This document shows, piece by piece, positions 44,853-50,988 of a stretch of DNA of 64,000 nucleotides. Within the stretch, counting starts at the first letter, position 1. Each line of letters starts with the position of its first letter. The DNA is from Candidatus Thorarchaeota archaeon (GTDB lineage: Archaea; Asgardarchaeota; Thorarchaeia; Thorarchaeales; Thorarchaeaceae), in NCBI GenBank assembly GCA_016933575.1, contig JAFGAR010000081.1, positions 160,001 through 224,000 on the forward strand, written 5' to 3'. The notes beneath the pieces were generated by a model. That model was not told the DNA's origin, searched no databases, and was given only the letters and a program-made list of their open reading frames with translations. The position numbers and the translations under genes are program-made.

Positions 44853-45830
44853 TTGGACCGCATCCGTAGTACTGATGATAAGAAGGGAGCTGCCGAATCT
44901 TCCATTGAACTAATTTGTTGCCCAGAGTGTAAGTCTACTACCGTAGTTGAGGATACCACTCGAGGTGAACGAGTGTGCGGCGGTTGTGGTCTTGTACTAT
45001 CCGACCATCGTATTGATACCGGAGCCGAATGGCGTGCATTCAGTACTGAAGAGAGTGACTCTCGAAGTAGAGTTGGAGCACCACTTCGCTATACCGTGCA
45101 TGATAAGGGACTCTCAACAGTTATTGACTGGAGAGATCGGGACACCTCTGGGAAGAAGTTGAGTCCGACACGAAGGTCGGAGATCTATCGATTGCGTAAA
45201 TGGCAGATACGGTCTAGAGTACATTCGAGCATGGATCGTAATCTTGCACAGGCTATGTCCGAACTCGAACGATTGTCCTCACAGCTTGGAATCCCTGAAC
45301 CAATTCGTGAGCTTGCAGCACTTCTCTACAGAAAATCTATCATCAAGAAACTAGTCCGTGGACGAAGTATTGAAGCTATGGTGGCAGCAACGCTCTATGC
45401 TGCATGCAGGATACGGGAAAAACCCCGTCCTCTTGACGAGGTTGCTGATGCTTCGCGTATCGATAGAAAGAAATTGGGACAGTGTTATCGACTTCTTCTA
45501 AGAAATCTAGCAATCAAGATCCCACTCTCTAATCCAGTCGCTTACATCTCCCGTTTTGCATCACAACTCGAACTCTCGAGCCCTGTGCAGCTCCGGACCG
45601 TTGAGATTTTGCAAAGAAGTCGCGATATTGGTCTCACAATAGGTCGTGACCCGCTTGGTCTTGCAGCGGCAGCAATTTACGTCGCCTCTATCATGTTAGA
45701 TGAACGCCGGACACAACGAGAGATTGCTGAGGTCGCAAGGGTCACTGAAGTCACAGTACGCAATCGCTACAAAGAGATCGTAAAGAAGCTCAGTATTGAT
45801 TCCATGGGTCTTGAACCTATAGAACACTGA
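44853..45830 (+). CDS. tfb: Transcription initiation factor IIB
   Basis: CPEC..VCGGCG zinc ribbon, EWRAF, RVGAP, HDKGLST, two cyclin repeats, TEVTVRNRYKE. Confidence 0.97.
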   Translation: MDRIRSTDDKKGAAESSIELICCPECKSTTVVEDTTRGERVCGGCGLVLSDHRIDTGAEWRAFSTEESDSRSRVGAPLRYTVHDKGLSTVIDWRDRDTSGKKLSPTRRSEIYRLRKWQIRSRVHSSMDRNLAQAMSELERLSSQLGIPEPIRELAALLYRKSIIKKLVRGRSIEAMVAATLYAACRIREKPRPLDEVADASRIDRKKLGQCYRLLLRNLAIKIPLSNPVAYISRFASQLELSSPVQLRTVEILQRSRDIGLTIGRDPLGLAAAAIYVASIMLDERRTQREIAEVARVTEVTVRNRYKEIVKKLSIDSMGLEPIEH

Positions 45831-45886
45831 TCTCTCGCTCACTCTACCTGCAATAGTACTAACATGTGTTGAGGATTGGTTATATG

Positions 45887-46102
45887 CTACCTTCTTCCAG
45901 TCTGTTGGAATGACCAATCGACCTGAACCATTTGTTCTGGGAATCCAAGCTTTGACAAGACGTCTCCAATGACCCCTCTATGATCTCCTTGCAGTTCAAT
46001 ATGGCCATGTTTTGCGGCTCCTCCGCAAGCAAGCTTGGCTTTCAGTTTTGTAGCCAAATCACCAAGGTCAATATTCTTGTCAAAACCTTCAAGAATTATG
46101 TT
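45887..46102 (-). pseudogene. Start-less 3' fragment of aIF1/SUI1 (displaced or duplicated C-terminal 70 codons)
   Basis: Reads NIILEGFDKNIDLGDLATKLKAKLACGGAAKHGHIELQGDHRGVIGDVLSKLGFPEQMVQVDWSFQQTGRR*; 58/69 aa identical to the intact gene at 48905-49249. Confidence 0.93.
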
Positions 46103-47227
46103 TTAGTTTCTAAAGAGTCCTAATGACATTTGGATGTGTTTTTTCATTTCTTCTGACATGCATATTACTTCAGATTGATACTTCTTGAATTCATCACGGG
46201 ATGAGAAATCCAATGTGTGTACAGTAAAACCTGATTTTTTAAAAGCATCAAAGATGGTCTGTACATTCTGTTTTGAGTAATTATTAACAATCTTTCTATC
46301 CAAATTCTTAAGGATTTCATAGCCGTATGCTGTGTAAAGAAACGTATCCCACTGGGGTCTGTTTCTAAGAACAGGTAACTTGATTCGCTCCATCTCTTCT
46401 TGTCTTATCTCTAGAATTAATTTACTCAGTCTTGCACATTCTGCATTCTCAAGGAAATTGTCATTAATGACTATTCCCACAGTAGACCTTCCAGTTTCCA
46501 CTTGGTCACACATTGTTTCAATAACAACAGGTTCGAGAGTTCTCTTTACATTTTCAATACTTGTGTCTGGAGGTATCTCAAGAATAAGTTCCAGCAAATC
46601 CTTTTCTAATAACCCATATTGTCCAAGACTCAATCCGTTTAAGACACTAGTTTGAGCAGTGATATGTGATGTTCTTCCTTTCACAACCTCTAGCTGGGTA
46701 TGAATAGGTTCCCAAGCCTGTATATTCTCTAATGGCTTATATTTTATCTTGTAAGGTGACCCTCTTGTGAATCCCCAGAAGTCATTTGTGTCAAGCCAAG
46801 TACTCACATCACTTCCTATTTGAAAATAAACTGGGTCATCCTCTGATACGTGTTGGAGTGATTCAAAGAGTGGTGTGATATCCCAAGGCATACTCAGAAG
46901 TCCACAAACTGTCACATCAATACTTCTAACATTCTTGAGTCTGGCCAAGGGGCATAGACTCATCTCTGTTAAGTATTGAAATCCATTTAGTTTTAATGAC
47001 CTAAAATTAGTGAAGTCGGCGAGTCCGGAGAGGTCAATAGAAACGTATTTCGGTTCATTATAGCCCTGCATACTAGCTCCATACAGTTCGATATAGTCCT
47101 TTTGATATCCTCGTAAAATTTCCTCTACTTCCGACTGGTGAATCTCTTCTTGTTCGGTTTTAAATTTCAGATATGCCTTTGAACTCATTACGTTGATTTT
47201 TACTGCATCAGTCAATTTAAGACTCAC
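46103..47227 (-). CDS. Leucine-rich-repeat-like protein
   Basis: SIDLSGLADFTNFRSLKL and LCPLARLKNVRSIDV degenerate LRR units; AT-rich. Confidence 0.65.
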   Translation of the reverse strand: MSLKLTDAVKINVMSSKAYLKFKTEQEEIHQSEVEEILRGYQKDYIELYGASMQGYNEPKYVSIDLSGLADFTNFRSLKLNGFQYLTEMSLCPLARLKNVRSIDVTVCGLLSMPWDITPLFESLQHVSEDDPVYFQIGSDVSTWLDTNDFWGFTRGSPYKIKYKPLENIQAWEPIHTQLEVVKGRTSHITAQTSVLNGLSLGQYGLLEKDLLELILEIPPDTSIENVKRTLEPVVIETMCDQVETGRSTVGIVINDNFLENAECARLSKLILEIRQEEMERIKLPVLRNRPQWDTFLYTAYGYEILKNLDRKIVNNYSKQNVQTIFDAFKKSGFTVHTLDFSSRDEFKKYQSEVICMSEEMKKHIQMSLGLFRN

Positions 47228-47277
47228 TGTGATTGTTGATTTATCATCTCCTTGATGAATATTCGAGTGAAGCTAGA

Positions 47278-48051
47278 TTAATCATGCAGACTTCCAAAGG
47301 CGTACTGGTCACGAGATGCTGCGAAGTTAATTGCCAGTAATGGTTCATCTGTTGAGCTTGTGCTGAACACATTGGGCTTATCGAGGCCGCTATCAGTGAG
47401 CGACCATCCCACCATCTCAGTATAGCCGAAGTTGACATCATGGGGAACTGAGAGCTTCCCATTCATGCCCTCAGGGAGGTCTACGAACACATTGAGGATT
47501 GTAAAGAAGGAGAGTTCTACATTCAGACCTGTATCCGTGAAGTTCACGTTCTCTGTGAAGATGATGTTGCAGATGCCTTCATTGGTACTGATTTTGACGT
47601 CCTGACCTGCAAGCTCTGCCCCATTGTCATAAATTAGTGTAACATTCAGATTACGACCATCAATGAAGACCTGATAGTAGGTGGCAGTTCCAAGGATCAC
47701 ATCAATAGATGCTATCTTGTAATCACCCATTCCATCAAGGACTAGATGGTAAGCATCTGGATCGTATGATGGCTCGTAGAGAGAGTAGTGATGATGCATT
47801 CCGGGTTCATACTGAACCACATCTATGGAATAGAGAAGATTGGGATTGTCCACAAAGGTGATGGTGACGTTTGTCGATGGTGCGCGGAGGGCTCTTAGGA
47901 ATAACACAGCATGTTTGGTACTTCCAGCAGGATAGGCGCACTCGTAGTGGAAATGAGTCTGAACCAAGGGGATACCTACGAACACCACCAGACCCACCAC
48001 TACAATGACTCCCACACTGATTGAGACCATTTTTCTTCGTTCCATTCTCAC
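47278..48051 (-). CDS. Membrane-anchored or secreted beta-rich hypothetical protein
   Basis: Basic N-terminus plus hydrophobic helix VSISVGVIVVVGLVVFVGIPLV; N-x-T sequons; GAGGTGA upstream. Confidence 0.7.
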   Translation of the reverse strand: MRMERRKMVSISVGVIVVVGLVVFVGIPLVQTHFHYECAYPAGSTKHAVLFLRALRAPSTNVTITFVDNPNLLYSIDVVQYEPGMHHHYSLYEPSYDPDAYHLVLDGMGDYKIASIDVILGTATYYQVFIDGRNLNVTLIYDNGAELAGQDVKISTNEGICNIIFTENVNFTDTGLNVELSFFTILNVFVDLPEGMNGKLSVPHDVNFGYTEMVGWSLTDSGLDKPNVFSTSSTDEPLLAINFAASRDQYAFGSLHD

Positions 48052-48083
48052 TCACCTCTCACTTCTCGTGTTCGAATTTATGT

Positions 48084-48791
48084 TCATCGCATATTCCCCA
48101 GCATGACAGGGATACGCATAACGAGCATAGCCATGTTCAGACTTAATGCAATTGAGGGAAGTATCAGTCTAGCCTTACTTGCTTGTATCCTTGTTGAACC
48201 GTCTTCCAAGGTGACAAGCGAGATTCCTCTCCTCCCCATTGCCCGAAGCAGTCCACTGGTGATGATGGAGAGCGTCATGGCAGTGAAGAAGACCTCTCCG
48301 CCGCCTATTGGTTGTGCGCTCTTATCATACCGGAGAACATTATCGAAGGCCATCTCAAAGATGACCTCGCCAACCAGTTCAAAATACTCTTTGACTCCAC
48401 GATAGAGTAACGAGCCCAGCTCTCGGGCTGAACTCATCTGAGAGATCTTCTTCAGGGTACTACTGAAGCCGAGGTCAAGCAGGTCATCTATCGTTGTCCC
48501 GAATCGACTGAGAACACTGCTTCCAGTACGTCGTAGCCCTGCACCTAACGCTCCAAGGTCTGCAAAGTTCTCTGCAAGGACTCCACCGAACCTGTTCCCT
48601 GCCCACCTAGCAAATCTTCCAAGACCCTTCGCTGCGGCCCCAATGCCAAAGGAGATACCGTTTGATAATGCTTCGGTCAGGATGAGGTTCCATCCTTGGT
48701 CAGAAGTGATACCCCAGATACTGAAGTTACCGATGTAGTTCCTGTCAACTCCAAGAGCCTGCATGGCACCAAGCAGGATGTGGTCGAACAT
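48084..48791 (-). CDS. Gly/Ala-rich hydrophobic hypothetical protein, possibly the C-terminal remnant of a larger gene
   Basis: GISFGIGAAAKGLGRFARWAG amphipathic helices and hydrophobic C-terminus; visibly GC-richer than flanks. Confidence 0.6.
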   Translation of the reverse strand: MFDHILLGAMQALGVDRNYIGNFSIWGITSDQGWNLILTEALSNGISFGIGAAAKGLGRFARWAGNRFGGVLAENFADLGALGAGLRRTGSSVLSRFGTTIDDLLDLGFSSTLKKISQMSSARELGSLLYRGVKEYFELVGEVIFEMAFDNVLRYDKSAQPIGGGEVFFTAMTLSIITSGLLRAMGRRGISLVTLEDGSTRIQASKARLILPSIALSLNMAMLVMRIPVMLGNMR

Positions 48792-48904
48792 GGGCCACGA
48801 TTTTTGTCCACCCCTCCTAGTCCCCCGACCTCCACCCCCACCACTCCCCTTTTTCCTTTTTTGTTTCTAAGCATGTATAATTGAAACACGTTCTCGAATT
48901 GATT

Positions 48905-49249
48905 CTATCTTCTTCCAGTCTGCTGGAATGACCAATCTATGTTGATTGCTTCTTTTGGAAATCCGAGTTTTTCCAGAACTTCTCCTATATTTGCCCTATG
49001 GTCTCCCTGCAGCTCGATATGACCGTGTTTTGCAGCTCCTCCACAGGCAAGCTTGGCTTTCAACTTCGTGGCAAGGTCGTTTAGATCGATATTTTTATCG
49101 AAGCCTTCTAAGATCAAAGTCAAACGACCCCATTTACGGCGCTCGACAGTCACATTAATTCTTGCCTCTTCCTGAGCGATTGTTTCGCACACACAGAGAT
49201 CCTGAGGCAAACCACAATTCGGGCAGATTCCGCCTTCGTCGTTACTCAC
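48905..49249 (-). CDS. sui1: Translation initiation factor aIF1 (SUI1/eIF1 homolog), GTG start
   Basis: CPNCGLP.DLCVCE N-terminus, RRKWGR, LKAKLACGG, IELQGDH. Confidence 0.96.
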   Translation of the reverse strand: MSNDEGGICPNCGLPQDLCVCETIAQEEARINVTVERRKWGRLTLILEGFDKNIDLNDLATKLKAKLACGGAAKHGHIELQGDHRANIGEVLEKLGFPKEAINIDWSFQQTGRR

Positions 49250-49395: not shown

Positions 49396-50988
49396 ATGAT
49401 GTCCGACTCTGTACTCATCATCGATGCATTAAGCGCTGGGTCTGGGAAACGAACCAGTTCTAGGGATTCTATCGGTTGTGGACCCAGAAGCGTAGCAGGG
49501 ATTTTTGAGAAGCATGGATTTGACTGCAGAATCTATAGGGCTGAAGAGATTCTTGAGAAAAAGAGTATAATGAGAAAGTTCGATCACATTGCTATCAGCT
49601 CTATGACCATGGACATGCCAGCTACTAGGAAGATCATGAACCTGTGGCGGAGCGGGGCTCGACATTCTGGTAGAGCTATTATTGGAGGTCCTATCGCTTC
49701 AGATTCTCGGGTGATTATAAAATTAGGTGCAGATCTCCTCGTTATTGGTGAAGGTGAGGCTACACTCGAGGAGTTGATTGAGCGGGACTATTTCCATGAG
49801 AAGATCGAGTTGTTGGACGTTCTTGGAATTGCTTTTGCAATCAATGGAAGAGTAGCATATACAAGGCCTCGTGAATTCATATCATCAGAATCTCTCTCAT
49901 CTGATTTTCTACCATCCACCACACGAATACTTGACTACAAGGCGTATCAAGCAAGTAAGGTCTATGTGGAGGTAACTCGGGGTTGCTCCAATTTTAGAAG
50001 GACTCGACTTCCCCTGTTAAATGGAAGTCAATGTTCTGAATGTGGAAATTGCGATGCTGACGAACCCGAAACACGTTTAGATTGCCCAGAAGATATTCCG
50101 CCTGGTTGTGGATTCTGTAGCGTTCCCGGAACGTGGGGCCCTCCAAGAAGCAGGTCTGCAGTGAGTATTGTGAGAGAGATCAAAGAACTTCTGGACTTAG
50201 GGGTCCATAAAATTGTCCTCGAGTCTCCTGGTTTCCTAGACTACTTCCGTGGATCCGAACCCCTCACAGATCCCTGTCATCCACCAGCTAATCTGTCTGC
50301 TATCAAGGATTTACTAGGGCAGATCAATAATCTGCCTCAAGTGATTGATGGAACTGCTCACATTACCATTGAGAACATGAAAGCGTGCCTGTTTACTGAT
50401 GAGGTTGCACAGATGTTAGTTGAGTCAATGATGTCGAGTTCTCCAAATATTGGTCTTGAGACCGGTTCTGAAAAGCACATGCATCAGATCGGTAAATGTG
50501 GAAATCCGCAGGATGTCCTTTCTGCTGTGAAAATTGCGAGTAAGTATGGAATGAAACCCTTTGTGTATTTCATCTATGGTCTCCCTGGAGAGGATGAAGA
50601 CAGTGTGAACGATTCTATTACCATGATGCGGCAAATCAGTGAGGCTGGAGCTGAGAGAATAATTCTGTATGGCTTTAGATCCTTGCCTGGGTCTGCCTTT
50701 GAGAACTACCCCTCCTCCTCAACCAGTAATCCACTTGGGGCTATACTCAGGAGGGAAGCTGATAGAATCAATCGAGTGAAGAAGGATGACTACATCGGAA
50801 AGATTGTTCGTGGTATTGCAGCTGAACAATCCTGGGTCAATAGAGGATACACCATGGTCTATCCCTTGGAAGAAGGTCCCCTCATGACAGTGCCTGGCGG
50901 CTTTTCTGCAGGAACACTCCTGAACATTCGAATAACCAAGGTTCTTAGTAGCGGCCTCCTTGAGGGAGTGGCCCTTCAATCATCCTAA
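49396..50988 (+). CDS. B12-binding-domain radical SAM protein with split Cys motif and C-terminal TRAM-like domain
   Basis: IIGGPIA, VIGEGE, VEVTRGC...GCGFC, GLETGS, FIYGLPGE. Confidence 0.85.
   Translation: MMSDSVLIIDALSAGSGKRTSSRDSIGCGPRSVAGIFEKHGFDCRIYRAEEILEKKSIMRKFDHIAISSMTMDMPATRKIMNLWRSGARHSGRAIIGGPIASDSRVIIKLGADLLVIGEGEATLEELIERDYFHEKIELLDVLGIAFAINGRVAYTRPREFISSESLSSDFLPSTTRILDYKAYQASKVYVEVTRGCSNFRRTRLPLLNGSQCSECGNCDADEPETRLDCPEDIPPGCGFCSVPGTWGPPRSRSAVSIVREIKELLDLGVHKIVLESPGFLDYFRGSEPLTDPCHPPANLSAIKDLLGQINNLPQVIDGTAHITIENMKACLFTDEVAQMLVESMMSSSPNIGLETGSEKHMHQIGKCGNPQDVLSAVKIASKYGMKPFVYFIYGLPGEDEDSVNDSITMMRQISEAGAERIILYGFRSLPGSAFENYPSSSTSNPLGAILRREADRINRVKKDDYIGKIVRGIAAEQSWVNRGYTMVYPLEEGPLMTVPGGFSAGTLLNIRITKVLSSGLLEGVALQSS

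Follow-up and report, generated by a model that had tools for sequence, protein, structure and literature searches.

Why should a translation factor gene end twice? In the genome of one Thorarchaeota archaeon, the last 70 codons of the gene for initiation factor aIF1 (sui1) occur a second time further downstream, with three open reading frames (ORFs) in between. The source is a single metagenome-assembled genome (MAG; G000, GenBank assembly GCA_016933575.1), 85.5% complete with 6.9% contamination, and the locus lies on its 265-kb contig C57 (JAFGAR010000081.1), of which a window of 64,000 nucleotides (contig positions 160,001 to 224,000) was analysed; window positions are used throughout. The duplication is found to mark a 3-kb block inserted inside sui1, flanked by two 3' copies that diverged long ago under purifying selection. 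The divergence tests favour, without proving, a chimeric expressed aIF1, with the distal fragment as what remains of the host's own 3' end. The locus is made up as follows.

44853-45830, plus strand: TFB, the convergent host neighbour (TFIIB match, E=1.2e-42; 84-91% amino acid identity to genus orthologs).
45831-45886: 56-nt spacer from the fragment stop to the tfb stop, of the size found in the relatives' empty site.
45887-46099, minus strand: distal, 5'-truncated sui1 copy, codons 45-114 and stop (SUI1 match, E=1.4e-11); probably the displaced host 3' end.
46103-47227, minus strand: orf374, cargo, 37% GC, probably leucine-rich-repeat-like, a link that is a lead only.
47278-48051, minus strand: orf257, cargo, paired with orf235; a membrane helix lies at its N-terminus.
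48084-48791, minus strand: orf235, cargo, 51% GC, without a Pfam or PHROGs match.
48792-48904, minus strand: 113-nt spacer between the intact stop and orf235, containing a G-rich tract and a TATA-like ATTATAC.
48905-49117, minus strand: proximal sui1 3' part, codons 45-114 and stop; the divergent version, probably imported.
49118-49249, minus strand: sui1 5' part, codons 1-44, with zinc knuckle, strand 1 and basic loop 1; host-like.
48905-49249, minus strand: the whole intact aIF1/SUI1 gene, presumably expressed (114 aa, GTG start, PF01253 E=1.2e-16).
49396-50988, plus strand: B12-binding radical SAM protein, divergent, upstream of sui1 and syntenic in all genus loci.

The intact gene and the second copy of its last 70 codons, which the original prediction had read from the letters alone, were reproduced at their coordinates by the ORFs and the SUI1 profile matches, and the whole genome contains exactly these two sui1 matches. 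The TFB gene was likewise found facing the fragment, as had been proposed. The starts of the two copies are 3,018 nt apart, and the distal one begins 3 nt past the TAA stop of orf374, which is in frame with the fragment.

That the block is an insertion is evident from the relatives. In at least 18 of the 20 genus genomes compared, the sui1 stop lies 28-93 nt from the end of tfb (159 nt in G015 and 393 nt in G020), with the two genes convergent, which is the empty site that had been anticipated; no sui1 remnants were detected in the 20 genus sui1-tfb spacers. The radical-SAM gene stands upstream of sui1 in the genus genomes as it does in G000, and gene order is kept for at least 10 kb on both sides of the locus. 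From the empty sui1-tfb site of the relatives it follows that the 3-kb block was inserted at codon 44/45 of sui1. The same four genomes (G006, G017, G012 and G001) recur among the closest relatives of genes on both flanks, so that neither flank is foreign; a large foreign segment on one side was rejected on this ground together with the synteny. aIF1 is single-copy in 79 of the 87 class genomes and absent from five incomplete ones, and a second match occurs only at contig edges, in two (G016 and G019); the sole partial match of G055 likewise lies at a contig edge.

Two candidate second cases were examined and dismissed, G011 because it proved to be a contig overlap at the level of single-nucleotide polymorphisms, and G019 because it has a 900-nt methyltransferase insert after the stop codon and no duplicated sui1. 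The G019 contigs (L012, the end of C151, and L034:1-1000, from C145) are identical over the final 76 nt of sui1 and part at base 3 of its stop codon, after which one of them has the 900-nt insert before tfb with a methyltransferase-like 235-aa ORF on the opposite strand. The sui1-tfb spacer is therefore variable within that population too.

It is hardly credible that the arrangement is an artefact of assembly or binning in which two strains or species were joined at sui1. The contamination estimate of the MAG would allow it, and the G011 and G019 assemblies do break at this locus through strain variation. However, the assembly would have to contain two false joins, the copies offer at most 16 nt of uninterrupted identity on which a mis-join could occur, and both flanks are syntenic, with the same closest relatives, on a contig of 265 kb. 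The closest aIF1 in the databases is only 85% identical, and the locus genes are all singletons, by exact-protein look-up and in 90% clusters, except TFB; judged from these sequences, the host lineage is an isolated branch with no sampled close relative.

The two copies are 72-73% identical in DNA over 207-213 nt. The 58 identical residues and the shared ending DWSFQQTGRR of the original prediction were recovered, the former as 58 of 70 positions, so that the expressed version differs at about 12 residues rather than 11. Homology of the fragment to sui1 extends from codon 44/45 to the stop codon; codons 35-44 of the expressed gene match the genus codon for codon, and after the two stop codons no significant similarity is found between the 113-nt and the 56-nt spacer. 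The fragment runs through its 70 codons without stop, frameshift or indel, as predicted, although the statement that it lacks a start requires correction, an internal TTG being present at 46057. A public annotation derives a 56-aa protein from this TTG (window 45887-46057), and that protein forms a cluster of its own in the protein collection.

The intact gene scores 61.4 bits against the SUI1 profile, above the curated cut-off, has the CxxC...CxC zinc knuckle and matches Methanocaldococcus jannaschii aIF1 (4MO0) at E=2.8e-31. Conversely, the fragment reaches 45.1 bits over profile positions 21-77 only, and is without start, zinc knuckle and strand 1. A SUI1 alpha/beta fold is predicted for the intact aIF1 (predicted local distance difference test score, pLDDT, 82-88 over residues 31-100), and the join falls in strand 2 of this predicted fold. 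Eleven of the 12 residues that differ between the copies map to helix 2, strand 5 and the loop after helix 2, and the twelfth, N57G, lies where helix 1 begins; neither basic loop 1 nor loop 2 contains a difference.

The 59 nucleotide differences between the copies are distributed over the first, second and third codon positions as 14/5/40, synonymous divergence (dS) is saturated and non-synonymous divergence (dN) is 0.13. Together, these values reveal that the copies diverged long ago as working coding sequences. A local duplicate that then decayed is ruled out by the same third-position bias, saturated dS and low dN; a pseudogene that had drifted long enough to saturate dS would be unrecognisable. 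The fragment, by contrast, is intact in spite of the saturated dS and sits on a short end branch (0.06 in DNA, 0.02 in protein), which argues that it belonged to a functional gene until recently. Consequently, the two versions would have been brought together recently, and one of them would be an import.

Which of the two is native was approached through their divergence from the genus, bearing in mind that all such tests rest on 132-213 nt of this one MAG. Across 15 flanking genes the maximum-likelihood (ML) distance ratio, which sets the distance between this genome and the genus against distances among genus members, was 0.92-1.38. The sui1 5' part (1.20), the fragment (1.08) and the 5' part joined to the fragment (1.03) all fall in this range, whereas the expressed 3' part reached 1.67. 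The whole-gene end branch of the expressed sui1, at 5.8 times the median, is the longest among the 16 locus genes (flanking genes, 1.0-4.6 times), and that of the expressed 3' part alone is 0.37-0.43 against a median of 0.066. Likewise, the whole-gene rate multiplier comes to 1.85 in the expressed sui1, as compared with 0.42-1.30 in members of the genus; with the fragment in place of the expressed 3' part it falls to 1.11. At first and second codon positions the expressed 3' part stands at 1.8-2.2 times the genus mean distance, the fragment at 1.2 times and tfb with the radical-SAM gene at 1.12-1.14 times; the expressed 3' part differs from the genus by a dN of 0.186, pairs within the genus by 0.095. 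A break at the pre-specified codon 44 gave a likelihood ratio test (LRT) statistic of 4.55 with one degree of freedom (P=0.03, approximately).

The fragment also appears the more at home in its codons and among its orthologs. It matches 23 of 33 third positions conserved in the genus, the expressed 3' part 14 of 33 and the lowest-scoring genus member 15, while at the 33 synonymous codon differences between the copies the codon preferred by the genome lies in the fragment 22 times and in the expressed copy 11 times. The fragment shows 81% nucleotide identity to G012 and up to 90% amino acid identity to genus orthologs, and among 45 database orthologs listed every one is as close or closer to the fragment. 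The signature of the expressed 3' part, RANIGEVLEKLGFPKEAINI, was absent from the 5.8 billion proteins searched. Both copies are nevertheless placed within the genus clade in DNA and protein trees; a donor outside the genus was rejected since the expressed 3' part itself falls inside that clade (97/84). The original prediction that the distal copy is the host 3' end and the expressed aIF1 a chimera is thus favoured by the divergence tests, and a host 5' part with an imported 3' part would be roughly three times as probable as the reverse.

Several observations weigh against this polarity. The copies are mutual nearest relatives in the trees, with support of 94/86 for nucleotides and 98/91 for amino acids, and the amino acid pairing persists (98/83) in the 3-row set after removal of the tail. 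They share L47 as well as Q110-T111, the latter unique among all sequences compared. Either donor and host were closely related, or sequence has passed between the copies. Synonymous distances alone do not discriminate between the polarities, nor does constrained placement, and the end-branch excess of the 5' part (4.3 times the median) is not clearly unlike that of the 3' part (5.9 times). In a scan of the whole gene the best break fell after codon 16 and not after 44 (LRT 8.95, P=0.05). In addition, the case is a single MAG without a close relative in the databases.

The geometry of identity between the copies raises a further difficulty. Over the final 33 nt the copies agree at 29 of 33 positions, two exact 14-nt runs included, as against about 70% for the remainder, and such a tail would suit a crossover at that end, which would reverse the polarity; at the left edge, where the favoured polarity needs the crossover, there is no identical core. 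To accommodate the tail, the favoured polarity must call on later gene conversion, which is an ad hoc step. A crossover at the internal 16-nt identical block was also considered, and dropped because the expressed copy is aberrant on both sides of it.

The reverse arrangement, in which the expressed sui1 is native and fast-evolving and the fragment arrived with the cargo by a crossover in the last 30 nt, accordingly merits serious attention. It would use the best recombination substrate in the locus, namely the tail with its two exact runs; it is compatible with the similar end-branch excess of the 5' and 3' parts, and with a dS to G012 and G001 of about 0.9-1.0 for the fragment versus 2.7-3.3 for the 5' part. 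Still, it leaves the outlier status of the expressed gene among the 16 locus genes unexplained, the excess divergence is concentrated downstream of the fragment boundary, host codon preference fits the fragment better, and the expressed 3' signature occurs in no database lineage. In view of both sides, we regard the reverse arrangement as unlikely.

How, then, did the block enter? The original prediction took it for an integrative element that swaps the C-terminus of aIF1, and this was not borne out. Neither Pfam nor PHROGs revealed a recombinase among the three block ORFs, the sole PF00589 match of the genome being on contig C189. The longest exact run between the copies is 16 nt and internal, and the left edge shares only GAAGG (5 nt); there is therefore no attachment-site-like (att-like) exact repeat. 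No terminal inverted repeats were found at the block, no tRNA or known RNA at the site, and, with regard to casposons, no Cas1 or other Pfam match in addition to the missing inverted repeats. The 86 other class genomes and IMG/VR yielded no second insert interrupting sui1. The same was true of 80 metagenome loci, bar one weak 33-aa stretch in an unrelated contig. Among the papers searched, none connects SUI1 to an integration site.

The weak stretch just mentioned is sui1-like (L156:571-669, E=7e-4) and lies about 500 nt upstream of a full sui1 on a 1.8-kb metagenome contig (L156) of a non-Thorarchaeota archaeon; it may be due to chance.

A site-specific element whose attP held a sui1 3' part, and whose recombinase was since lost or acts in trans, would nonetheless account for the geometry: the target is restored by incoming sequence, the displaced 3' part lies at the far end and relatives retain empty sites. 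Archaeal elements do, moreover, use the 3'-distal parts of protein genes (PMC6563490). With no recombinase in or near the block, no more than 16 nt of identity anywhere, no inverted repeats, a mosaic GC content, cargo homologs that occur elsewhere without duplicated flanks, and no sui1-linked insert in the genomes, metagenome loci and viral database named above, such an element is improbable, even in this relaxed form. A block able to move in and out is not supported, and it is very doubtful indeed that a still-mobile sui1-targeting element, with a recombinase that is unrecognisable or supplied in trans, toggles the C-terminal 70 residues of aIF1, the factor that proofreads start codons; if true, mobility of this kind would retune translation initiation in an Asgard archaeon.

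The composition of the block is mixed (36-38% versus 49-52% GC, against a background of 43-48%), and orf235, orf257 and orf374 match no Pfam or PHROGs family. The three had been described as orphan genes; this applies to part of them only, as orf257 and orf374 are members of multi-copy genus families (25-43% identity, and 21-33% for orf374) and the pair orf235-orf257 recurs elsewhere. Homologs of orf235, a singleton cluster at 90% identity, were confined to G001, where it is degraded, and G016. The best outside homolog of orf257 is 44% identical, and its more distant homologs lie in variable regions, next to an OLD nuclease, Schlafen-AlbA_2 or a DDE transposase. The G001 and G016 pairs sit among metabolic genes, and no flanking duplications accompany the orf235/orf257 homologs at other loci.

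The adjacent pair is found at G016:C20 (L081:12321-14829) and G001:C4 (L080:8900-9850). The G016 version of orf235 makes up the C-terminal part of a 570-aa protein; the G001 versions of both orf235 and orf257 are degraded. An arrangement of this sort recalls a variable C-terminal domain accompanied by a partner gene. At the other end of the block, the TAA of orf374 (window 46100-46108) occupies the place of the Leu43 codon, TTG or TTA, of genus sui1 genes, and readthrough of this one stop would fuse orf374 to 72 SUI1 residues. A 13-nt near-repeat, TTAGAAAC(T/A)AAAA in gene orientation, occurs at window 46101-46113, exactly at the junction of orf374 and the fragment, and at 48858-48870, 35 nt past the intact sui1 stop; this placement is suggestive, and chance repeats of like size are common in the region. 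The sui1-orf235 spacer contains a G-rich coding-strand tract, GGGGAGTGGTGGGGGTGGAGGTCGGGGG... (window 48800-48850), which holds a 19-nt imperfect tandem repeat.

The absence of a recombinase and of an identical core, the mosaic GC content and the lack of any other instance all argue for one-off recombination rather than a site-specific element. We would put slightly better than an even chance on a single, homology-guided recombinational insertion of a block from a related lineage into the host sui1. The 3,018-nt block would have come from a related, distinct Thorarchaeota lineage, or alternatively from a long-resident element derived from such a lineage, and would have entered in frame at codon 44/45. 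It would have consisted, in order, of the donor's last 70 sui1 codons, the 113-nt spacer, orf235, orf257 and orf374. The donor sequence would have restored the reading frame, with the host N-terminus giving way no later than codon 45 to imported sequence that makes up the C-terminal two thirds, while the host 3' part was pushed downstream and may survive beside tfb as a recent, startless remnant. Two routes can be envisaged. A circularised fragment may have entered by a Campbell-type crossover; alternatively, in homology-facilitated illegitimate recombination, one joint would have formed within sui1 homology and the other, illegitimate one at the orf374 end. Experimental precedents in bacteria exist for Campbell-type single crossover as well as for homology-facilitated illegitimate recombination. 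Gene conversion may afterwards have homogenised the final 33 nt of the copies. In eIF1/aIF1 the ribosome-facing side comprises both loops together with helix 1, and the loops are unchanged between the versions; the swap of C-terminus was thus probably tolerated, rather than being a designed switch.

Comparison of the genome with itself gave one good analogue of this architecture, a second locus at C64:130249-135132 (L083:2750-7633), where an intact FlpD/MvhD-like gene (153 aa) is followed by a 4-kb islet with a CHAT-like gene, a prenyltransferase-like gene, a Ras-like fragment and a pair of RHH/UPF0175 and PIN/DUF3368. A copy of FlpD from residue 31 begins 3 nt past the PIN stop, with 81% nucleotide identity. 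G006 has the empty site, G001 has the order FlpD-RHH-PIN-FlpD' with an identical break point, and in five further genomes of the genus shorter 3' pieces of FlpD lie 0.5-1.3 kb downstream, each time with a different small cargo and without an integrase. The two FlpD copies of G000 are sisters on branches of similar length (0.45 and 0.36), which suggests that both are long-lived; as symmetric, long-lived paralogs they do not settle the mechanism at sui1.

The FlpD locus does lend some force to the view that sui1, too, existed as long-lived tandem full-length paralogs, and that the downstream, slower-evolving copy later lost codons 1-44 through insertion of cargo or through deletion. The pairing of the sui1 copies in trees and the mark of long purifying selection on both would agree with this. 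On the other hand, none of the 86 other class genomes has a second internal sui1 copy, the conserved copy would be the one destroyed, and the in-frame, codon-exact register with the break in the expressed gene would have to be coincidence. Tandem paralogy is consequently considered very unlikely.

Should the favoured polarity hold, sequence from two lineages would be expressed together as one mosaic core translation factor, and the locus would record a recombinational replacement inside an Asgard informational gene, with the displaced original kept as an internal control. The two 3' parts also constitute a natural pair of C-termini, with 12 differences and variation in helix 2 and strand 5, that can be compared for start-codon stringency. 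More generally, accessory islets can enter a tight convergent gene pair without a dedicated integrase. The weight of these points is limited, since they come from a single MAG with no sign of mobility.

Among known systems, the e14 prophage in icd of Escherichia coli encodes an integrase, excises, and has repeats with an identical core. The present locus is similar to e14/icd in that a diverged 3' copy would have been brought in to give a chimeric gene, the host 3' part being left as a pseudogene at the far end. It differs in having no recombinase or core, and in the extent of the replaced part, which makes up 61% of the protein and is 28% diverged in DNA. SXT/R391 is a large bacterial conjugative element with an integrase that inserts into prfC and replaces its 5' end. 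At sui1, too, a translation-factor gene is entered, and the replaced end would be supplied by the incoming sequence; unlike the present case, SXT replaces the 5' end and is conjugative, integrase-bearing and bacterial.

Nearer in phylogeny, 14 of 68 integrated elements of Thaumarchaeota use 3'-distal parts of protein genes, including that for EF-2 (PMC6563490). Archaeal elements and casposons of this kind encode an integrase or casposase, have short att or target-site duplications and are found in several genomes at one and the same target, none of which was seen at sui1; the likeness lies in the archaeal host, the use of the 3' part of a translation-factor gene and, should the favoured polarity hold, the reconstitution of the frame by the incoming sequence (PMC6563490). 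With homology-facilitated illegitimate recombination the differences are that the precedent is bacterial, and that at sui1 the exact crossover point cannot be placed. What the two have in common is one homologous and one non-homologous joint, the lack of a dedicated recombinase, the duplication of the anchoring gene part, and the one-off character of the event.

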